Of a DNA stretch of 64,000 nt, positions 13,871 through 26,386 are shown piece after piece; position 1 is the first letter of the stretch; every line of letters starts with the position of its first letter. Made by a program: the position numbers and the translations under genes. Source of the stretch: Promethearchaeota archaeon. Its GTDB lineage: Archaea; Asgardarchaeota; Lokiarchaeia; Sigyniarchaeales; SOKP01. Location of the stretch: contig JBHLOC010000002.1 of the NCBI GenBank assembly GCA_048940925.1, positions 128,001-192,000 on the forward strand. The letters are read 5' to 3'. The notes under the pieces are model-generated. The model saw only the letters and a list, made by a program, of their open reading frames with translations, did no database searches and was not told the origin of the DNA.

Positions 13871-14064
13871 AATTATTCATATTTAAGGTTTAGAGTTTCT
13901 TCATTAAAGCATTAAAATCTCTTGTATAATTAAAAAATCCAAAATTTTATAATCATTATCTTTATTTTTTTGGTTAAAAGTTCTTCTAAAGATTAATAAT
14001 TATTACGAGACTAATTATATCTATACTACAAATTTCTACTTTCTTCATTTAAAAATAACTTAAA

Positions 14065-14661
14065 ATGAATAGTAAGGAAAACAACAGAAATATCAAAAAC
14101 ACGGAAAAAATAGATGAAATTGCCGACGCAATTGAACAATCTATGAAAAAAGGTCATATTAGTACATTAATATTATTATCATTAGAGAAAGAACCTTCAC
14201 ATGGATATAAATTAACTGAAGAAATTCAAAAAGGTACCTATGGAGTTTGGGCTCCAACAGCTTCAGCATTATACCCTCACTTATCTTCATTAACAGAGAA
14301 AGGATTAATTGAATATACTACAGAATTAGATGGCAAAAGAGAACGAAAAGTGTATAATATCACACTCAAGGGAAAAGAGGCATTGAAAACGATTATTGAA
14401 CGGCAACAAAATATGGTAAAATCATTTCTTTCAATGTTATTTTCTACAATAGGGATAACTGATTCAACTATTCCTAATGAATTAGAAGGATTATTTGGAC
14501 CCGATATTATAGAAGTAGATTTATTGAATAAATCTGACCAGGAAAAAATAAAACTTTTATCCAAACGAAAGGTTGTACTTTCAAGGGTAGTTGATAAATT
14601 AAGTAATGTAGTGAATGATATTAATATGAGAATCGAAGATTTGCGAAGAAGCAAAGAATAG
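14065..14661 (+). CDS. PadR family transcriptional regulator
   Basis: EPSHGYKL, LYPHLSSLTEKGLI, RKVYNITLKG. Confidence 0.88.
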   Translation: MNSKENNRNIKNTEKIDEIADAIEQSMKKGHISTLILLSLEKEPSHGYKLTEEIQKGTYGVWAPTASALYPHLSSLTEKGLIEYTTELDGKRERKVYNITLKGKEALKTIIERQQNMVKSFLSMLFSTIGITDSTIPNELEGLFGPDIIEVDLLNKSDQEKIKLLSKRKVVLSRVVDKLSNVVNDINMRIEDLRRSKE

Positions 14662-14780
14662 TAATTTATTCTTTCACATATTCTATTAATTTGATATTTC
14701 AAGTTCGACATACAAAAATATATATATAAGAATCTTACATATCTTGAAGACATTTCTATCCATAACTATTTTAAGATTAG

Positions 14781-15779
14781 GTGTTATTATTATTGAAGGT
14801 TTTATTAACAGGACCTTTTGGAAATGTAGGGTTGAGTACATTACACGAATTAATTAAAAGAAATCATGACGTCAGAGTTTTAGATATAAAATCTAAAAGA
14901 AATCATAGAATTGCAAAAAAGTATAAAGATCAAATAGAAATATGCTGGGGAGATATACAGAACTATATGTAGAAAAAGCAGTATCGAGATATAATTATCC
15001 ATACAGCAGCAATTATACTTCCGCTTGCTGATAAGAAACCAAAGTTTGCTGAGTCTGTCAATGTTGGTGGAACTTCAAATATCATTGAATCAATGCATAA
15101 TCAACCGCAGAAACCTAAAATCATCTTTACATCCTCAGTAGCAATATATGGAGGCAGGTTAGAAAATCCTTTAATTAGACCAAAAGATCCTCCTAATCCC
15201 AATCCGGATGATGCGTATGCAAAACAAAAGATTAAGTGTGAGGAAATAGTTAGAAATTCAGGATTAAAGTGGTCTATATTTCGTTTAACTTATATTGTAT
15301 CAATAAATAAATTACAAATGGATCCTCTCATGTTTGAAATGCCACTTGATACATGTATTGAAATCTGTGATACTAAAGATGTAGGTCTTGCTCTAGCAAA
15401 TGCTGTAGAAAATGATAAGATTTGGGGTACAGTAATGCATATTGCTGGAGGAGAACGGTGCCGGATTTCATATCGAGATTACCTTAATGAAATGTTAGAT
15501 CTTTTTGGCATTGGTCATCAATTCTTACCTGACGAAGCTTTCAGACAGGATCATGGTTTCCATTGCGGATTTAAGACAACAGATCAAAGTCAAAACCTTC
15601 TAAAATACCAAAAACATACTCTTGATGATTATTTTAATGACGTAAGAAAAAAAGTCTTCTTTTTGCGACTCTTTACCAAAATGATTAGACCAATTGCACA
15701 AAAATTTCTGCTAAATAAATCAGTTTATTACAAAGAATATATAAATAACTATCATCCTAAATCTACGATTAAAAACTAG
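14781..15779 (+). pseudogene. Disrupted NAD-dependent epimerase/dehydratase (extended SDR)
   Basis: LLTGPFGNVG, IIIHTAA, TSSVAIYG, YAKQK. Both halves share a frame but are split by TAG 14970-14972; the expected VEKAVS is present only in a shifted frame. Confidence 0.75.
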
Positions 15780-16075
15780 TTAAATTTCAATCTTTTTTCA
15801 ATCCTTCTAAAAGGGTAATTCTTTCTTTTTCATTTATGTGACAAATATGATTAAAAAACTGAATAAAAATGTATGAAAATGATCACATTTTAATTCAATG
15901 TTTTTTATTTTCTATCATATAATTTCCTAAAAGTTTCAATCAGAATAATAATGATATATCTCTACTATCATCAATCTATAAACTGGTTATGTTGATAAAT
16001 AGAAAGAAATAAAAATGTTAAAAAAGAATAAAATCTAAAAAAAGAATTATTAAATTCAGAGATATATCAAAAAAG

Positions 16076-16091
16076 TATACAATCGTGTATA
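16076..16091. promoter_or_regulatory. Palindrome TATACA-ATCG-TGTATA upstream of the Sec-hdrA operon (candidate operator)
   Basis: Perfect 6-bp arms ~30 nt before the ATG at 16120. Confidence 0.35.
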
Positions 16092-16119
16092 AAAAAAAGA
16101 GGTGGATGTGTAAAAATAC

Positions 16120-18063
16120 ATGAAGAATAATCAAAATCATCGGATTGGATACTATGCATGTCAATGAGGTATAAATATAAGGAGTAAAGTAGATTGCGAT
16201 GAGTTAACTGAATATGTAGCTAAAAACTTTGACGATGTTGTAATTTCTAAGAAAAATTCATTTCTATGAACTGATAATGCTCAAAAAGAGATAATTGAAG
16301 ATATTAGAGAAAAGAATTTAAATAGAATTGTGGCATCAGCTTGAACTCCACGTACTCATGAAGTAATTTATAGGGGCACAATTGCTAAAACTGATTTGAA
16401 TCCTTATTATTTTCAGATGGTAAATGTGCGTGAACACTGCTCATGGTGTACAGATAGTAGAGAAGAAGCTACAGAAAAGGCTAAAATCCTAGTAAAAAGT
16501 GGTATTGAAAGGGTTAAAAGATTAGAACCAGTTCCTATTAAGACAGTTCCGGTCACTAAAGCTACTTTAGTGATTGGAGCTGGTATTGCAGGGATGAATG
16601 CGGCTCTGGATCTAGCGAATCAAGGTATCAAGGTTTACTTAGTTGACTGTAAAACTACGATAGGAGGGAGAATGGCACAATTAGACAGAACTTTCCCGAC
16701 AGATGACTGTGCAATATGAATATGTGGTCCAAAAATGTTAGAAGTTAATAGAAATGAGAATATTGAATTATTGACTTATAGTGAAGTAAAGAATGTAGAA
16801 GGATATGTCGGTAACTACAGAGTAACAATTGAGAGGAAACCAAGATTTACTACAGATGAATGTAATGGATGTGGAGCCTGCGCTGAGGTCTGTCCAGTTT
16901 ATACGACAAATTATTTCGATGAACATTTAGGGGCACGAAAAGCAATTGATATATCATTTGGCCAAGCAGTACCTTTTTTATATGATATCGATCGAAACAC
17001 CTGTGTAGAATGTTTCTCTTGTGTAGACGCCTGTGAATTAGATGCCATAGATTTTAGTCAAGAACCAAAAGAACTTAAAATTGATGTTGGTACGATTATT
17101 ATAGCGACTGGATGGGATATATATGAACCTTTTGGTGAATACGGATATGGAGAATTTGAAAACGTTATAACTCAACCTCAATTAGAACGAATGTTAGCTC
17201 CAAATGGACCTCTTGAAGGCCATGTACACAGAATATCAGATAATAAAGAACCTAAAGAAATTGTATTTATACAATGTGTTGGAAGTCGAGAAACTGAACG
17301 AACATACTGTAGTGGTGTCTGTTGTATGCTTGCTCTAAAAAATGGAAGATTACTCTTAGAGGAATTTCCAGATGCAAATATTACAGTTTGTTATATTGAT
17401 ATTAGAACACCTGAAAAAGGATTTGAAGAGTATTACGAACGATCAAAGGAAGCGGGAATTCGAATGATTAGAGGAAAAGTAGGAGAAATCTCAGAAGATC
17501 CTGATACTAAAAATATTAAAGTTCGAGTGTATTCATCGCTTACTGATGAAATAATAATAATTGATGCTGATTTAGTAGTATTATCCACAGCAGCACTCCC
17601 TTCAAAAGGATCCGAACAAATTGTTAAACTTTTAAATCTAGATACAAATACGTATGGATTCCTTACAGAATCACACTTTGGGTTAATGCCCCAAGAGACA
17701 AAAACAAAGGGAATTTTTATTGCTGGATTTGCTCAAGGACCAAAAAATATTTCTTATTCAGTTTCTCAAGCCAGAGCTGCTGCCAGTAAAGTAGCAGAGT
17801 TAACAGCACCAGGAGAAATCGATATAGAAATGATTACAGCTGAAGTTGATAGTGAATTTTGTATATCATGCAGACGATGTGAAAAAGAATGTCCGAAAGG
17901 TGCAATTAAAATTAAGGAGGATATCGGAGCATTTATTGATGAGATAAATTGTGATGGATGTGGTATTTGTGCTACATGTTGTCCTACACAAGCTATTGAT
18001 ATAAGATATTATCGAGATCATCAATTATTTGCTGAGATTGATGGTCTTTTAGGAGGTGCGTAG
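16120..18063 (+). CDS. hdrA: Heterodisulfide reductase subunit A, selenoprotein with four UGA-encoded Sec (647 aa)
   Basis: One frame from ATG 16120 to TAG 18063. TGA at 16165 (RIGYYACQUGINI), 16267 (NSFLUTD), 16342 (ASAUTPRTHE) and 16717 (TFPTDDCAIUICGPKM), each aligning to Cys in the four hdrA paralogues of this window. Confidence 0.92.
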
Positions 18064-18066
18064 ACA

Positions 18067-18537
18067 ATGAGTAAGTATAATTATAAGGTGGTAGCATTTG
18101 CGTGTATAAAATGAGGATATAGTGCAGCTGATTTAGCAGGAGTTTCCCGATTGAAATATACATCAGCTATAAAAATCATCAAAGTGCGTTGTACCGGAAG
18201 AATCGATCTAAAACATATACTCTACAGTATAAAATCTGGAGCTGACGGTGTTATGATTGTAGGATGAAGACCAAATGAATGCCAATTTAAAAAGGGTAAT
18301 TTTACGGCTGAAAAGCATGTAGAATTAGCAAACAGGATATTAGAATTGAGAGGTTTTGGAAGTCAAAGAGTAAATATGTACTGGGTAAGTGGAGCAGAAG
18401 CAGAAAAATTTGTGCGAAGTGTAGAAGATATTTTTTCGAAAGTGGAGAAAGTAGGTCCAAATCCGATAAATTTAATGGATATTAAACCAGAAATAAATAA
18501 AAAAGAAAAAGAACTAATTACAGCCCCTGTTGAATGA
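18067..18537 (+). CDS. mvhD: MvhD/VhuD/FlpD [2Fe-2S] subunit, selenoprotein with two Sec (156 aa)
   Basis: ATG 18067; FACIKUGYSAADLAG (TGA 18112), VRCTGRID, IVGURPNEC (TGA 18265). Paralogues have CNWCSY and GCHxGDC. Confidence 0.92.
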
Positions 18538-18588
18538 TTCTTGTAAAAAATGCTAGTTACAAGAGGACTAGCCTTGCAATGGAGGGGG
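18524..18588 (+). promoter_or_regulatory. Eukaryote-like SECIS element candidate
   Basis: AUGA (18534-37), 9-bp stem UUCUUGUAA/UUACAAGAG (18538-46/18557-65), A-rich loop AAAAUGCUAG, GA (18566-67); possible lower helix CCCCU/AGGGG. Confidence 0.8.
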
Positions 18589-18645
18589 ATTATTAAATAT
18601 TATAATAGATATAGATCAAAAATTTTTAAAAAAAAGGTTTAAAAT

Positions 18646-20142
18646 GTGGTTCAGATAGGCAAAGAGTATTCCTTTGATAAGATCAATCCACGGAATTTAA
18701 TGGAAGCAACATACAGGGCTATTGAAAATTTTCAGATAAGGGCTCTTTTTGAAGCAAAAGAGGAAATTTTACAAGCTGGAAAATATTCGGAAGAAGAATT
18801 TTATGAAATTTTAGACTCAATGATCGATGCTGAAACAGAACGCACATTGATTTTAGAAGAAATACGAGGTAACGAGCCCTTATTTTTAGAAGAACTAGTA
18901 AAGATTGTAAAGGACGTGCCTCCTGTAAATGTTATTAGAGATATATTTTATTTAAAGGAACAGGGTTATATTAAAAAAGAAATCGAAACTAAAATTAAAA
19001 AAGTTATCAAGAAAATTAAAGGAGAAGAAAAAGAGGTTGAAGAAAAAGAATTTTTCTATAGATATCAAGCTAAAGATCTTCCAAATGATTTTATAGAGCA
19101 CCATTTGGAACCTGTTTCTATTGTATTTAAAGCAGGAGTATGTTGTCATTGTGGATGGTGCTCCTCTATCTGTCCTGTAAATGCCATAACTGTAACTGCT
19201 GACACACTTGAAATACACGATGAAATTTGTATTAAATGTGGATTATGTTATACAGTTTGTCCTCGTTCCTTTTCAATTGAACAAGCTTTAATGGCTATTA
19301 AAAAACTTGATAAAACCTTTAAATTTTCAGAAAAAATTAATGGTTATATCGATACCTATTCTGCCACCACAACTAAAGATGAGATCAAAAAGGTACGACA
19401 AGATGGAGGAATCGTAACCTCATTATGTGAATATTTACTTACGAATAAATTAGTTGATGCGATTGTAGCTGTTCAGCATTCAAAAGACTTATGGAAACCG
19501 GAGCCAGTTATTGTAGATAATTTAAAAGATCTCTATAAGACAGGAGGGACGAAATATGCAAATGCATCAACATTAGCAATTATTGATAAAACAAAGATGT
19601 ATGAGAACATAGCAGTAGTAGGAACTCCCTGTATGATGAATGCTTTAGAAAAAGGTCAATTATTTCCAAGCGGTATAGTCTTTTTCAAGAATATAAAATA
19701 TAAAATTGGACTTTTTTGCATGGAATCTTTTCCCTATGAGGGTGTACTTGGATTAATTAAGGAGCAATTTAAACAGGATTTTACTAAAGTAACAAAGATG
19801 GATATCAGCGGTGGTAAATTTATTATCTATATGGATTCAGGAGAAGAATTAAAAGTACCACTTAACGATATTAAATCTTATGCACGCTCTAATTGTCATT
19901 ATTGTGAAGATTTAACAGCGGATTATGCTGATATTTCTGTAGGTTCAATTGGTTCAGGAAGTGGCTGGTCTTCTGTAATCACCCGAAATAAAAAGGGAGA
20001 AAAAATTTTTAAAGCTGCAGTTAAAGCTAAGTTAATCGAAGCTAAAAGTCTAAAAGAAGTTAAACCTGGTTTAGGTTTATTAGAAAGGATTGCTCTTAGT
20101 AAGAGGAAGAACTGTAAACCAATTAATCTAGAAGGAGAATAA
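18646..20142 (+). CDS. FrhB/FdhB-family protein with N-terminal helical/wHTH module and ferredoxin
   Basis: CCHCGWCSSICP, CIKCGLCYTVCP, RQDGGIVT, VGTPC, IGLFCME, CHYCEDLTADYADISVG. Confidence 0.85.
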   Translation: MVQIGKEYSFDKINPRNLMEATYRAIENFQIRALFEAKEEILQAGKYSEEEFYEILDSMIDAETERTLILEEIRGNEPLFLEELVKIVKDVPPVNVIRDIFYLKEQGYIKKEIETKIKKVIKKIKGEEKEVEEKEFFYRYQAKDLPNDFIEHHLEPVSIVFKAGVCCHCGWCSSICPVNAITVTADTLEIHDEICIKCGLCYTVCPRSFSIEQALMAIKKLDKTFKFSEKINGYIDTYSATTTKDEIKKVRQDGGIVTSLCEYLLTNKLVDAIVAVQHSKDLWKPEPVIVDNLKDLYKTGGTKYANASTLAIIDKTKMYENIAVVGTPCMMNALEKGQLFPSGIVFFKNIKYKIGLFCMESFPYEGVLGLIKEQFKQDFTKVTKMDISGGKFIIYMDSGEELKVPLNDIKSYARSNCHYCEDLTADYADISVGSIGSGSGWSSVITRNKKGEKIFKAAVKAKLIEAKSLKEVKPGLGLLERIALSKRKNCKPINLEGE

Positions 20143-20162
20143 CACATAAATATAATTTTATC

Positions 20163-21275
20163 ATGAGTTCAAAATCATTTAAGGATCTAATTAAAGAAGT
20201 TCATGAGAAAGGTATTTGTCAAGAATGTGGAGGCTGTGTAAGCTTTTGCAGTTCAGTTGATTATAATGTAATTGGATTTAAAGAACCCTTCTCACCTCCA
20301 GAATATATAAATAAAGATGCTTGTCTTGAATGTGGGATATGTTATTATCTCTGTCCTCAAACTCATATTTTGGATGATGATCTTAACAAAACATATAATT
20401 TTACTGATTTCAATTCAATGCCTTTAGGGTATTTCGAAGATATTCTATCTTGTCAAACAACTGATCCTGAATTTTTAAAACATGGAACTGATGGTGGAGT
20501 GGTAAATACAATCATAAACTACCTATTAGAAAAAAAATTAATTGATGGAGCGATTGTAGCAAAATATCAGGGTCCATTCTCTAGAGAATCCATGTTTGCT
20601 GAAGGAAAAGGTGATCTAATTAAGGCATCAGGTACAAAATTGGAAATATCTACCCAATTAGATGAAATTCAAAGATTTTGTACATATACACGCTCCATCC
20701 CTCAATTAAACCACTATAAATTTAAAAAATTAGCAATAGTGGGGACACCTTGCCAAATTTATACGGTTAGATGTATGCAAAATTTAGGTGTGACCCCTTC
20801 TGAGTATATTGAAATATGTTTAGGATTATTTTGCTATCATAATTTTCTTTTTGAGAAAACTCAGAGAGAAAAATTTGAAAAAACTTTTAATTTAAAATTT
20901 GAAAATATAAAAAAAATAAATATTAAGGAAGATTTGATTCTAAACTTGCAGTATAATAAATCTAAAGAGAAAACACTCCATATTCCTTTTGAACAGTTGA
21001 CAGATTACATCCGTCCTCCCTGTCATTCTTGTACCGATTTTACTAATATCTATGCTGATATTTCATTTGGAGGTCTTGGATCACCAAATAAATATACTAC
21101 AGTAATTCCTCGTACAGAAAAAGGTAAAAAATTGATTAACAAAATTCTTGATGATAAGATTATTAAATGTTTAGACATTGATGCTACAGCTGAAAATAAA
21201 ATGAAAGAGTTAATCACAAAATTTTCTCGATTAAAGATAAAGCGAGGAAAAGAATTTATAGAGAATTTAATGTGA
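20163..21275 (+). CDS. FrhB/FdhB-family protein
   Basis: CQECGGCVSFC, CLECGICYYLCP, GTDGGVV, VGTPCQ, LGLFC, CHSCTDF..ADISFGG. Confidence 0.85.
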   Translation: MSSKSFKDLIKEVHEKGICQECGGCVSFCSSVDYNVIGFKEPFSPPEYINKDACLECGICYYLCPQTHILDDDLNKTYNFTDFNSMPLGYFEDILSCQTTDPEFLKHGTDGGVVNTIINYLLEKKLIDGAIVAKYQGPFSRESMFAEGKGDLIKASGTKLEISTQLDEIQRFCTYTRSIPQLNHYKFKKLAIVGTPCQIYTVRCMQNLGVTPSEYIEICLGLFCYHNFLFEKTQREKFEKTFNLKFENIKKINIKEDLILNLQYNKSKEKTLHIPFEQLTDYIRPPCHSCTDFTNIYADISFGGLGSPNKYTTVIPRTEKGKKLINKILDDKIIKCLDIDATAENKMKELITKFSRLKIKRGKEFIENLM

Positions 21276-21279
21276 GGAA

Positions 21280-22536
21280 GTGAAATTTATAACAGAAATA
21301 GAAAAAAAAGGGAAACCAAAGCAAGATATTGATGAAATAGATTTATTCTTAAAAAAAATATATGAACCTAATTTAATAAATTTATTAAGAAAATGTTATC
21401 AATGTGCTCGATGTTCAGGTGTATGTCAAGTTAGCAAAGTTCAGAAGTTCACACCAAGTAGAATAATTCAGATGATTTTAGAGGGTTTTGAGGATAAGAT
21501 TATCGAAAGTGGAGTTTTATGGGATTGTTTAACATGCAATGCTTGCCTCCAAAACTGTCCTAAAGATATAAACTTTGCGGACATTGTGCGAATAGCACGA
21601 TATAAAATGCAAAAAGAAGGTTTTCACAGTCTTGATCGGTTAATATCACATAAAGGCCTTTATCCGACAATAGGTGAACTAATGAGTCAAAACCATATTG
21701 ATATTACAAGACCCTTGGATTGGATTCCAAAAGGGTGTAAAGTTAAAGATAAAGGAAATATATTATATTTTGTTGGATGCATTCCTTTTTTTGGTTATGA
21801 TTTTGAGAATTTAGACAAAATAGCGTCTAGCACATTATCAATTATTTGTAAAATTGAAAATGAGCCTATTGTTGTCCTCAAGGAAGAAGTTTGCTGTGGA
21901 CATGATTTATATTGGGGGCAAGGTAAATTTGAAGTATATATAGAATTAGCAAAAAAAAATAAAAAATTATTTGAAAAAGCAGGGATTTCCACAATAATAA
22001 CAGCATGTGCGGAATGTTATAGAACATTTAAAGTGGATTATCCCAATTTATTTGAAGATTTCGACTCAAAATTTGAAGTTAAACATATTATTGAATATGT
22101 GTATGATAATTGGAAGCTAGGGAAAATAGCTTTTAAAAGTCCTAAAAAAGCTTATCAAAATATTAATTTTACTTTTCATGATCCTTGTAGATTAAGTAGA
22201 TTTTTACCAAAAAATATAAATCTAGTAGAAGAACTTCGAGAAATTTTTACACATCTAAACAGTCTTGGGTATAATTTCAAAGAAATGAAACATAATAAGC
22301 AGAATTCATTATGTTGTGGAGTCAGTTCTTGGTTGAATTGTAATGAGCGTTCAAAAGCATTGCGATATACTAGAATTTTAGAGGCAAAGGATGTCGGTTC
22401 TAAAGTATATACATCTTGTCCTAAATGCAATATCCATTTAAATTGTATAAAGAAAGATTATGAAGATATATCTTCAGTAGAAATTTCAGATCTTTCAGAA
22501 TTTCTAGTTGATATAATTTCTATTATAAAAAATTAA
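21280..22536 (+). CDS. HdrD-like (HdrC-type ferredoxin plus two CCG domains)
   Basis: CYQCARCSGVC, CLTCNACLQNCP, EVCCG, TACAEC, HDPCRL, LCCG, SCPKC. Confidence 0.85.
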   Translation: MKFITEIEKKGKPKQDIDEIDLFLKKIYEPNLINLLRKCYQCARCSGVCQVSKVQKFTPSRIIQMILEGFEDKIIESGVLWDCLTCNACLQNCPKDINFADIVRIARYKMQKEGFHSLDRLISHKGLYPTIGELMSQNHIDITRPLDWIPKGCKVKDKGNILYFVGCIPFFGYDFENLDKIASSTLSIICKIENEPIVVLKEEVCCGHDLYWGQGKFEVYIELAKKNKKLFEKAGISTIITACAECYRTFKVDYPNLFEDFDSKFEVKHIIEYVYDNWKLGKIAFKSPKKAYQNINFTFHDPCRLSRFLPKNINLVEELREIFTHLNSLGYNFKEMKHNKQNSLCCGVSSWLNCNERSKALRYTRILEAKDVGSKVYTSCPKCNIHLNCIKKDYEDISSVEISDLSEFLVDIISIIKN

Positions 22537-22557
22537 AAAAGGGGAGATAAAAAGATA

Positions 22558-25500
22558 GTGGAAGGATCTGTATTAGTAATTGGAGGAGGTATTGCGGGAA
22601 TCCAAACATCTTTAGATTTAACTGAATTAGGATTCAAGGTGTATTTAGTAGAAAAAACACCCTCAATAGGAGGGAGAATGGCTCAACTTGATAAAACATT
22701 CCCTACATTAGACTGTAGTTTATGCATTTTGGCACCTAAAATGGTGGAAGTTTTAAGGAATCCTAACATTGAACTCATGACATATCATGAAGTGCAGAAA
22801 GTAACTGGAAAAACTGGAGATTTTAATGTAACAGTTCTTAAGAAACCTCGTTATATAGATGAATCAAAATGTAAAGGATGTGGAGATTGTGCCAGCAAAT
22901 GCCCTAAGATCGAAGCTCCTAATCTTTTTGACATGAATTTAGGTAAAAGGAAATCTATTTATATTCCTTTTCCTCAGGCTGTACCCCCTGTTTATTTAAT
23001 TGACTCTGAAATGTGCCTAAAACTCACTAGGGATGTATGTGGAGTATGTCAGAAAGTTTGTGAAGCGGATGCAATAGATTTCGAACAAAAGCCCCAAGAA
23101 ATTAAGTTAAAAGTAGGAGCAATTGTTGTAGCAACGGGATTTGATATGACCCAGGAAGGATTATCATCAAGGTGGGGTATATATCATGAAAATGTAATAA
23201 CTGCTTTAGAGTACGAACGAATCCTTTGTGCTAGTGGTCCGTTTGATGGTCATGTTCTACGCCCAAGTGATAAAAAAGAACCTGAAACAATAGCGTTTAT
23301 TCAGTGTGCAGGCTCCAGGGACTTACGTGAAAGAGTTCCTTATTGTTCAAGCGTATGCTGTATGTATTGTGCCAAAGAAGCCATAATCACACGGGAACAC
23401 TCTGAAAACTCAAAATGTTTTGTTTTTCGACATGATATTAGGGCATATGGAAAAAATTTCTATGAATTTACTCAAAGAGCTCAAGAAGAATATGGAGTAA
23501 CTTATTTTCATACAAAAATTAGTAAAATTAAAGAAGATCCTCAAACTAACGATTTAACTATTCTATATGAAGATTTACAAACGGGATTACTCAACGAGTT
23601 TAAAGCAAATTTAGTTATTTTAGCTACTCCGCTTATTCCATCGAAAGGTACTAGAGAATTGGCAAAAATTTTAGATATTAACTTAGATGATTATAATTTC
23701 TTTGAGGAAACATCTCACTTTTATAAATCTTTATCTTCAAGGGAGGGTGTTTTCTTAGCAGGATTTTGTCAAGGACCGATGGATATACCCGAAACCGTAG
23801 CAGATGCCAGTGGAGTGGCTTCACAGGTTGCAGCTTTACTTAACTCCGTTAAATTTACTCAAATCAAAGAAAAAGTTTTTGATGTACCAGAAAAAGAAGT
23901 TCTCTTAACTGATGATCCAAGAATTGGTGTGCTTATCTGCCACTGTGGTATTAATATAGGGAAATATATTGAAATACCAAAAGTTATAGATTATATTAAG
24001 GCATTACCGAATGTAGTTTTTTGTGAAGATAATTTATATTCATGTAGTTCTGATTCCCAGGAACTAATTAGAGAAGTCATCAAAGATTTTGATTTGAATA
24101 GGTTTATTGTTGCTTCATGTACTCCAAGAACTCATGAGGCTTTATTTCAAGAAACATGTCAAGAAGCTGGATTGAATAAGTATTTATTCGAGATGGTTAA
24201 CATACGGGACCAATGCTCTTGGGTTCATATGACTGAGAAAGAAGCAGCAACTGAAAAAGCTATTGATTTAATTGAAATGGCTATTGCTAAGTCTAGACTA
24301 TTACAACCACATACAGAACAAGAATTATCAGTGATACCTAATGCCTTAATAATTGGTGGTGGAGTATCTGGAATGACAGCTGCATTGAACATTGCAAATC
24401 AAGGATTTGATGTTTACCTCATAGAAAAGAAAAAGAAACTAGGAGGTCTTTTAAACGATTTATATCTTTTGTATCCAACTCAAGAAGATGCTTCGATATT
24501 CCTGAAGGAAATAACTCAGAAAGTTGAGAACCATAAAAATATTGAGGTTCATTTAGAGTCAAAAGTAAAAGATGTTAAAGGATATGTTGGAAATTATGAT
24601 GTATCCCTTATTAATACCAATAATGAGGTGAGCGAACTTAAAGTTGGTATTATTATTGTCGCTACTGGAGGTCAAGAATTAAAACCTGATCAATATTCGA
24701 TATATGATGATAAAAATCAAAATGTTATTACTCAATTAGAATTGGAGCAGAAATTAAAAAGTGAGGATAAGTCTTGGCTTGATAATATCAAACGAGTTAC
24801 TACAATTCTATGTGTAAATGCAAGACAAGATGAAGGGATTACATTTTGCTCAAATATATGCTGTGTAACGACTATCAAAAACATGAATATTCTAAAGGAA
24901 TTAAAACCAGACCTCGAAATCATTATCCTCTATAGAGATTTTCAAATGGCTAAAAAGGAATTTGAAGAATACTTTTTTGATAGGAGGAAAGATGCAATTC
25001 TTCTCAGATATGACATAAACAAACCACCAAAAATTACTAAAATAAAAAATAAACCTGAAAAATATGGTATAAAGGTATTTGATACTAATTTACAAGATTT
25101 CATTTCCTTTGATACAGATTTTGTAATCCTATCTCCTCCCATGATTCCATCAGATGATTCAAAAGAGTTAGGAAAAATGTTAAAAGTACCCTTAGATAGG
25201 CATGGCTTTTTCTTAGAAGCACATGCTAAATTAAGACCAGTAGATTTCGCTACTGATGGTGTTTTTCTATGTGGTTGTGCTCATTGGCCAAAACATATTC
25301 AAGAATCAATTACCCAAGCAAATGGAGCTGCTGGGAGAGCAAGCAGATTTTTAAGTTCAAAAGGCATTGTTGCATCAGGTTTAGTAGCAGAAGTAAATAG
25401 TGATATTTGTATAGGATGTGGTGTTTGTACGAAATTATGTCCTTATAATGCTATATCGAAAGATGAAGAAGGTATAGCGATTGTGAATAAACTTGTGTGT

Positions 25501-25608
25501 AAAGGCTGTGGGGTATGTGGTGCGAGTTGTCCCGAAAATGCTATAACTGTACATCACTTTACTACAGATCAGATCTTATCAGAAATCATTGTTTATGGGG
25601 GGGATTAA
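22558..25608 (+). CDS. hdrA: Large (double-FAD) HdrA-family flavoprotein
   Basis: Two GGGxxG FAD sites, LDKTFPT, ferredoxin insert, internal [14 protein letters not shown]-terminal 2x[4Fe-4S]. Confidence 0.9.
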   Translation: MEGSVLVIGGGIAGIQTSLDLTELGFKVYLVEKTPSIGGRMAQLDKTFPTLDCSLCILAPKMVEVLRNPNIELMTYHEVQKVTGKTGDFNVTVLKKPRYIDESKCKGCGDCASKCPKIEAPNLFDMNLGKRKSIYIPFPQAVPPVYLIDSEMCLKLTRDVCGVCQKVCEADAIDFEQKPQEIKLKVGAIVVATGFDMTQEGLSSRWGIYHENVITALEYERILCASGPFDGHVLRPSDKKEPETIAFIQCAGSRDLRERVPYCSSVCCMYCAKEAIITREHSENSKCFVFRHDIRAYGKNFYEFTQRAQEEYGVTYFHTKISKIKEDPQTNDLTILYEDLQTGLLNEFKANLVILATPLIPSKGTRELAKILDINLDDYNFFEETSHFYKSLSSREGVFLAGFCQGPMDIPETVADASGVASQVAALLNSVKFTQIKEKVFDVPEKEVLLTDDPRIGVLICHCGINIGKYIEIPKVIDYIKALPNVVFCEDNLYSCSSDSQELIREVIKDFDLNRFIVASCTPRTHEALFQETCQEAGLNKYLFEMVNIRDQCSWVHMTEKEAATEKAIDLIEMAIAKSRLLQPHTEQELSVIPNALIIGGGVSGMTAALNIANQGFDVYLIEKKKKLGGLLNDLYLLYPTQEDASIFLKEITQKVENHKNIEVHLESKVKDVKGYVGNYDVSLINTNNEVSELKVGIIIVATGGQELKPDQYSIYDDKNQNVITQLELEQKLKSEDKSWLDNIKRVTTILCVNARQDEGITFCSNICCVTTIKNMNILKELKPDLEIIILYRDFQMAKKEFEEYFFDRRKDAILLRYDINKPPKITKIKNKPEKYGIKVFDTNLQDFISFDTDFVILSPPMIPSDDSKELGKMLKVPLDRHGFFLEAHAKLRPVDFATDGVFLCGCAHWPKHIQESITQANGAAGRASRFLSSKGIVASGLVAEVNSDICIGCGVCTKLCPYNAISKDEEGIAIVNKLVCKGCGVCGASCPENAITVHHFTTDQILSEIIVYGGD

Positions 25609-25612
25609 CTTA

Positions 25613-26386
25613 ATGGAATTCAAACCAAAAATTTTAGGATTTTTATGTAATTGGTGTTCTTATGCTGGGGCTGATCTTGCAGGTGTAAGTCGAATTCAGT
25701 ATTCTCCAAATATTAGAATTATAAGAGTTATGTGTAGCGGTAGAGTTGATCCTATCTTCATTGCTGAAGCGTTTTCTAATAATATTGATGGTGTATTAGT
25801 TTTAGGATGTCATCCTGGAGATTGCCATTATATAAGTGGCAACTATGAAGCAGAAATAAAAATGAAGATGTTGAATAAATTATTAGAATTAATAGGGTAT
25901 TCTAAACGTTTACGATTAGATTGGGTTTCTGCTGCTGAAGGTAATAGATTTGCTCAGCTAGTTGATGAATTTAATGAACATATTAAGAAATTAGGTCCTA
26001 ACCCAATAAAAAACAAAAAACTAAAAGCTAAATTATCTGACGATTTTGCTGCAATAAAATCTGTTTTGATGGATTCTAGACTTAGAATTTTAGTGGGTAG
26101 AGAAAGAAAAATCACTACAGAAGGAAATGCATATAATGAGATAATCCCTATAGAGGAATTTGACCAAAAAATTGACGATGCAATTAATAATGAATTTTCA
26201 CGATATAAAATATTGCAAAAAATCTCTCACCATAGTAAATCTGTCCCAGAAATCTCTAAAGAGGTTCAAATTGCGCCAAATGAAGTATTAAATCACATTG
26301 TTACTTTAAGACAAAGAGGGCTTGTTGATTTAGATGAGGTTAATGAAGAAATACCAACATTTATTTCAATTAAGGAGGGTAAATAA
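25613..26386 (+). CDS. mvhD: MvhD with C-terminal helical/wHTH extension
   Basis: [29 protein letters not shown]; likely start MEFKPK at 25613 after a G-rich SD. Confidence 0.88.
   Translation: MEFKPKILGFLCNWCSYAGADLAGVSRIQYSPNIRIIRVMCSGRVDPIFIAEAFSNNIDGVLVLGCHPGDCHYISGNYEAEIKMKMLNKLLELIGYSKRLRLDWVSAAEGNRFAQLVDEFNEHIKKLGPNPIKNKKLKAKLSDDFAAIKSVLMDSRLRILVGRERKITTEGNAYNEIIPIEEFDQKIDDAINNEFSRYKILQKISHHSKSVPEISKEVQIAPNEVLNHIVTLRQRGLVDLDEVNEEIPTFISIKEGK

Follow-up and report, generated by a model that had tools for sequence, protein, structure and literature searches.

Can a single triplet be read as selenocysteine (Sec) twice within a gene and then terminate it, when its last copy also lies in the RNA element expected to direct Sec insertion? 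This question is raised by a vhuD gene in the window, that is, the whole 64,000-nt stretch of DNA that was analysed (C41:128001-192000), which comes from a Promethearchaeota archaeon MAG of 4.8 Mb in 90 contigs. A first-pass annotation, made from the letters alone, had proposed that the stop codon of this gene supplies the core of a Sec insertion sequence (SECIS) and that a terminating ribosome would transiently unfold the element, a possible feedback on Sec insertion. The two genes that precede the element are the following.

16120..18063, + strand: hdrA, 647 codons, of which four are in-frame UGA (Sec), with a UAG stop at 18061-63
18067..18537, + strand: vhuD/mvhD (FlpD family), 156 codons, matching Pfam PF02662 with an E value of 1.6e-42

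The UGA codons of hdrA are found at 16165-67 (U16), 16267-69 (U50), 16342-44 (U75) and 16717-19 (U200). When the protein is aligned to PDB entry 9sfi_A, the first three are opposite Cys and U200 is opposite a Sec residue (X). In vhuD, two TGA codons at 18112-14 (U16) and 18265-67 (U67) precede the first in-frame stop, which is the UGA at 18535-37, within the terminal codons GAA-TGA (18532-37). Both internal positions align with the non-standard residue X (Sec) in 9sfi_K and with Cys in 5odc_D, which bears out the earlier claim that the same triplet acts as Sec twice and then as stop. Since the hdrA stop is only 3 nt before the vhuD start, hdrA lacks both a 3' UTR and a separate SECIS. Neither a pattern scan nor a covariance-model search found a second SECIS in the hdrA-vhuD region, and the six UGAs (four in hdrA, two in vhuD) sit 269-2369 nt upstream of the one element. 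The vhuD product is variable and K/E-rich past residue 135 and, because the solved MvhD/VhuD homologues stop approximately 20 residues short of its C terminus, this tail can be viewed as an extension that runs into the SECIS.

The element itself is made of a lower helix (H1), an internal loop with the AUGA core, an upper helix (H2), an apical loop, the 3' side of the core and a side hairpin (H3), arranged as follows.

18524..18528, + strand: 5' strand of H1, CCCCU, inside vhuD Ala-Pro codons
18529..18537, + strand: 5' internal loop and core, GUUGAAUGA, with the AUGA at 18534-37, whose UGA is the vhuD stop
18538-46 with 18557-65, + strand: H2, 9 bp, strands UUCUUGUAA and UUACAAGAG
18547..18556, + strand: apical loop, AAAAUGCUAG, 10 nt, A-rich, ending in AG
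18566-67, + strand: GA of the 3' core, followed by a conserved C (GAC, 18566..18568)
18572..18582, + strand: H3, CCUU-GCA-AUGG, after the core GA and before the second strand of H1
18584..18588, + strand: 3' strand of H1, GGGGG, pairing with CCCCU at 18524-28

All nine pairs of H2 are standard, the first being U.G, and the window copy of H3 contains one U.U mismatch. Direct reading of the sequence upheld the first-pass annotation throughout: every coordinate that it had given for the AUGA, the 9-bp stem, the loop, the GA, the lower helix and the UAA is correct, the core UGA (18535-37) is indeed the first in-frame stop of a two-Sec gene, the 5' strand of the lower helix is coding sequence, and reading through the stop would add U-F-L before a TAA at 18544-46. 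This UAA falls within the H2 stem.

Folding of the single sequence could not decide whether this structure forms, because the window is no more stable than its shuffles (z = -0.94) and its minimum free energy fold (-17.9 kcal/mol) uses another, window-specific apical pairing, the proposed fold having -14.1 kcal/mol. An Rfam scan of 14000-24000, with E values up to 10, returned no SECIS family and only chance snoRNA-like matches. The structure was settled by comparative data. The window and ten homologous loci were aligned using MAFFT with no structural guidance, and RNAalifold recovered from these 11 orthologues the proposed structure together with the small hairpin on the 3' side. Six pairs have changed on both sides in this alignment, where 94% of cells are paired against 44-62% with slid partners. 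A covariance model built from it identified 45 elements (43 distinct) in 29 genomes. When these are aligned by fitting to the model, a procedure that leans towards the model, 93.1% of cells are paired, as opposed to 44-57% in slid controls, and double changes occur in 16 of the 19 pairs, including all six of H1 and all nine of H2. Covariation in homologous loci, which had been suggested as a check on the first reading, is thus strong in both main helices, and the stem and GA quartet are conserved in the relatives rather than lost.

The details of this conservation are those of a kink-turn-type core. None of the 45 aligned elements lacks the ATGA, the longer GAAUGA is shared by 39 of the 43 distinct ones, and the 3' core is GA in most relatives, with a minority of AA as published. 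The first pair of H2 is unpaired in 17 of 43 distinct elements, which is expected of the fourth, non-Watson-Crick pair of a quartet. The loop measures 11 nt in the orthologues and 10 nt in the window and one other element. As for H3, which has the consensus CC(U)-UGCR-(A)GG and follows the GA(C) ahead of the 3' strand of H1, 41 of 43 elements (alignment A2) retain both outer C-G pairs, and the third pair covaries (UA in 16, UG in 11, CG in 5 and AU in 4). This hairpin might turn the element into a three-way junction, in contrast to the two-helix eukaryotic form.

The genome has Sec machinery. A tRNA-Sec gene was found (63.7 bits), which sits approximately 630 nt upstream of SepSecS on the same strand (G000:C3:50049-51927), and a PSTK-like gene is also present. 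The closest vhuD loci in the homologous-locus search are in Promethearchaeota/Hodarchaeota MAGs. Together, the tRNA-Sec, SepSecS, the PSTK-like gene and these closest loci identify an Asgard archaeon with the archaeal/eukaryotic Sec pathway. A bacterial-type reading, with a SECIS inside the open reading frame (ORF), is ruled out by the nearest loci and this machinery.

When compared with published elements, the one in the window is a close match to the lokiSECIS. According to the main text of PMC4989117, the latter has an AUGA ahead of a stem of 9 bp, which is capped by a loop of 11 nt that opens with some five As and closes with (A)G, and a GA that follows the stem; it lies at the very end of ORFs, one copy after vhuD being common to the hdrA-vhuD tandem and a single element serving up to six UGAs over approximately 2 kb. 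The window shares the AUGA, the 9-bp stem, the A-rich loop ending in AG, the GA and the site at the ORF end, as well as a single element for hdrA and vhuD with a multi-Sec HdrA, here with six UGAs over approximately 2.4 kb. Its loop has one A fewer (10 nt instead of 11) but is within the 8-20 nt of the 2024 type I model, as given in the text of PMC11227280. The hdrA stop, UAG, is as predicted by the rule in PMC4989117, as its text words it, that the Loki HdrA stop is always UAA or UAG. Since the lokiSECIS features, loop length apart, are matched and its helices covary, the element is very probably what the first-pass annotation took it to be, a SECIS with a kink-turn-type AUGA...GA core. Two features of our alignment, the covarying lower helix and the mini-hairpin on the 3' side, are absent from the main text of both papers.

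The overlap with the stop is not new either, because both papers state it in their main text. Many Loki selenoprotein genes end in UGA and the AUGA/stop overlap is illustrated for VhuU.1 (PMC4989117, Mariotti 2016), the gene for which these texts document it by name, VhuD being credited only with "diverse stop codons including UGA", and the overlap is said to occur "often" in Lokiarchaeia (PMC11227280, ISME J 2024). The element and its overlap with a UGA stop are therefore already known for Lokiarchaeia and ordinary for the clade.

Relative to other SECIS types, the window element resembles the eukaryotic one, being type I and kink-turn-type, although no Rfam SECIS family matches it. The upper helix of eukaryotic SECIS is approximately 12-15 bp, compared to 9 bp in the window. 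Eukaryotic elements lie in a long 3' UTR and are bound by SBP2, whereas the window element abuts or overlaps an ORF, serves two cistrons and carries an extra side hairpin. Our search of the genome for an SBP2-like protein (a long protein with an L7Ae domain) found none, the L7Ae family being represented by just two ORFs, of 125 and 129 aa, in agreement with the absence reported in the main text of PMC4989117. The VhuD SECIS of Methanococcales/Methanopyrus serves the same gene at the same two Sec positions, with one element for two UGAs, and both types have AUGA 5' and GAC 3' of the main stem (the euryarchaeal frame being AUGA...GAC/AAC). However, the core of the euryarchaeal SECIS is a GAA_A bulge followed by a 3-bp G-C upper stem, and neither is present in the window, where the upper stem is an A/U-rich 9-bp helix above an AUGA/GA core and GAA merely precedes the UGA in the internal loop.

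Across 151 Asgard genomes, the covariance model finds matches in 29, among them all 25 sampled from the family of the window. The genome of the window contains seven elements, and the six others, which were outside the training alignment, have E values of 1e-13 to 1e-5 and all lie at the 3' end of TGA-containing ORFs: two VhuD paralogues, a Prx-like protein (PrxL), an HdrA-like protein and two small membrane proteins. The single-Sec PrxL gene (L018; G000:C62:28228-28303, - strand) terminates at the UGA in the core of its SECIS (...NPKEE-UGA), so the overlap is not peculiar to the multi-Sec hdrA-vhuD operon.

One SECIS copy, on the same contig but beyond the window (L016; G000:C41:222944-223019, - strand), follows an ORF of 83 codons for a membrane protein with one in-frame UGA (...GGTSUSSPC...), possibly a small selenoprotein that does not belong to the five families common in Asgard archaea. 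A putative 102-codon ORF (L020/L055; G000:C63:88277-88585, + strand) has an N-terminal membrane helix and a C-K-R-U (CxxU) motif, and its frame runs on through the whole hairpin until a UGA to which the last stem base gives the U and the 3' core the GA. A search of 40 other genomes of the same family returned no homologue. The HdrA-like ORF at locus L019 (G000:C85:66847-66924, + strand), of at least 499 codons with two UGAs, ends on a UAA 11 nt before its own SECIS, the core of which has AA. If it has no vhuD downstream, it would break with the published rule, under which hdrA relies on the element of vhuD. Finally, a VhuD-like paralogue at approximately 42985 on G000:C7 (- strand), seen by the pattern scan only, ends in ...GAA-UGA-UUU-GAA-UGA, with two UGAs 6 nt apart, the second being the SECIS core.

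Where does the stop fall in the other copies? For all 45 elements, we took the long upstream frame and recorded its first stop, with the following outcome, the counts being descriptive and not tests since the sample is biased to query-like elements and its rows are related.

24 of 45 elements: the frame ends on the UGA of the core AUGA
8 of 45 elements: UAG ending 1 nt before the AUGA (UAGAAUGA)
1 of 45 elements: UGA abutting the AUGA
1 of 45 elements: UGA 9 nt upstream of the core U
10 of 45 elements: UAA 8-29 nt upstream of the core U
1 of 45 elements: UGA formed by the last stem base and the 3' GA, the whole hairpin being read (orphan ORF)

The 24 core-UGA elements include the window, all nine of its closest orthologues, two copies from a different family (L047 and L048) and the PrxL of the same genome. 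With the exception of the orphan ORF ending in the 3' core, stops outside the core lie 1-26 nt 5' of the AUGA. In a quick maximum likelihood tree of 33 VhuD proteins, the stop state has changed at least seven times, the 11-row VhuD clade of the window (support 98) being core-UGA throughout. Because the stop slides by approximately 25 nt among close relatives, the overlap is best understood as a tolerated by-product and not as a control device. The core-UGA majority and the uniform clade are, though, also expected under selection for the arrangement. The element closes frame 0 in every copy and all three frames in 32 of 43, so any tail drifting into it is stopped there.

These results lead us to a simple scheme. 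The folded element would direct Sec insertion at the six upstream UGAs, a role that we infer from homology and the literature, and a ribosome translating vhuD would then cross the 5' strand of the lower helix and end on the invariant core UGA. With this UGA in its A site, the lower helix and the core should be unwound and the 5' strand of the upper stem covered, and the codon would be read as a stop since no SECIS exists while the ribosome sits there. Mariotti et al. make the same termination argument, in the form of a minimal-distance rule, in the main text of PMC4989117. How the stop came to be in the core would be explained by neutral capture, with a drifting, low-complexity C-terminal tail meeting a stop built into the element. 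We thus consider that this is very probably a standard type I, eukaryote-like lokiSECIS ending a bicistronic hdrA-vhuD message, and that the coincidence of stop and core is neutral. A reading of the overlap as a selected regulatory device is not the one we favor, a special regulatory role being unsupported. While the window element brings no new principle, its overlap with a UGA stop being already in the literature, well-annotated examples are useful, especially of one element that serves six UGAs in two genes. The additions made here are modest: the census of stop positions, the covariation of the lower helix and the conserved side hairpin, the last of which deserves a place in future SECIS models.

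The feedback idea, according to which the stop was selected in the SECIS core so that a terminating ribosome melts the element and throttles or paces upstream Sec insertion, nevertheless has several points in its favor. A ribosome on the last codons is certain to unfold the element, given its established footprint, and the core-UGA state is conserved through the 11-member clade of the window and recurs in a distant family and in PrxL. However, ribosomes terminating 1-26 nt 5' of the AUGA unfold the element equally, and the effect thus does not require the stop and the AUGA to coincide; the placement of the stop is labile on the VhuD tree. Moreover, single-Sec genes share the overlap (PrxL, and VhuU.1 in the main text of PMC4989117), which removes any tie to multi-Sec operons, and in Methanococcus (M. 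maripaludis) relocating a SECIS so that it directly adjoined the coding region left its function unimpaired (PMC9622424), although that SECIS is of the euryarchaeal type. The idea would appear to gain nothing from the comparative data, and we judge it quite improbable. Only a little less doubtful, and still unlikely, are two more speculative proposals. In one, the stop in the core would be selected in the VhuD clade of the window because termination inside the kink-turn strips or resets SECIS-bound factors each round, coupling completion of VhuD to the six Sec insertions of the next ribosome. In the other, which is separate, the mini-hairpin with its UGCR loop would make a three-way junction with a binding site lacking a eukaryotic counterpart.

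That the terminal UGA is at least partly decoded as Sec, giving VhuD-...APVEUFL with a C-terminal Sec, is suggested by the in-frame UAA two codons on in most orthologues. Near-C-terminal Sec is known elsewhere, for example in thioredoxin reductase. The codons after the core UGA tell otherwise, since they vary non-synonymously (UFL, UIL, UYL, UFS and UILK; F/I/Y, then L/S) and track the RNA pairing, their changes being matched by compensating changes in the 3' strand. Although the next in-frame stop is generally two or three codons on, none is nearby in L037 and L047, and it is shifted in L024, L027, L028 and L032. The conserved terminal ...T/A-P-x-E is accounted for by the lower helix and internal loop being read as protein. 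A UGA in the A site is also incompatible with the same UGA forming the kink-turn, there is no second SECIS nearby by either search, and the shorter solved homologues have no counterpart of the residue. The read-through tail therefore seems not to be conserved, with nothing in the sequences to suggest a selected ...EUFL product, and we regard a C-terminal Sec as highly improbable. Smaller still, and close to negligible, is the chance that we are dealing with a common 3' stem, for stability or termination, whose likeness to a SECIS is accidental. The shuffles, the lack of an Rfam match and a U-run after the element in most orthologues would fit such a stem, but not the conservation of GAAUGA, GA(C) and the loop AG while both helices covary, nor the presence of a TGA-containing ORF (VhuD paralogues, PrxL and HdrA included) before every covariance-model match in the genome, nor a set of features that is that of the published lokiSECIS. 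Neutral capture of the stop by a standard lokiSECIS is thus the reading that we retain.

Downstream of the element, an frhB-like ORF (18646-20142) is in the same frame as vhuD, and a read-through fusion of the two is excluded by the TAA at 18544-46 and another at 18640-42. A domain shuffle between the C-terminal module of a long Cys-MvhD (25589-26386) and the N terminus of FrhB (18646-20142) is likewise unsupported, BLASTP, a weak test here, revealing no similarity between the two regions (best relevant E value of 3.1). In loci L004-L012, a U-run comes straight after the lower helix (GGGGUUUU), with a conserved UAGUAUUCAAUU approximately 10 nt on; the window has neither in 18589-18645 (GGGGGAUUAUUAAAUAUU). 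One possibility is that the U-run acts as an oligo-U terminator of the archaeal kind and that the genome of the window has lost it; if this is true, transcription could run on into the frhB-like genes.
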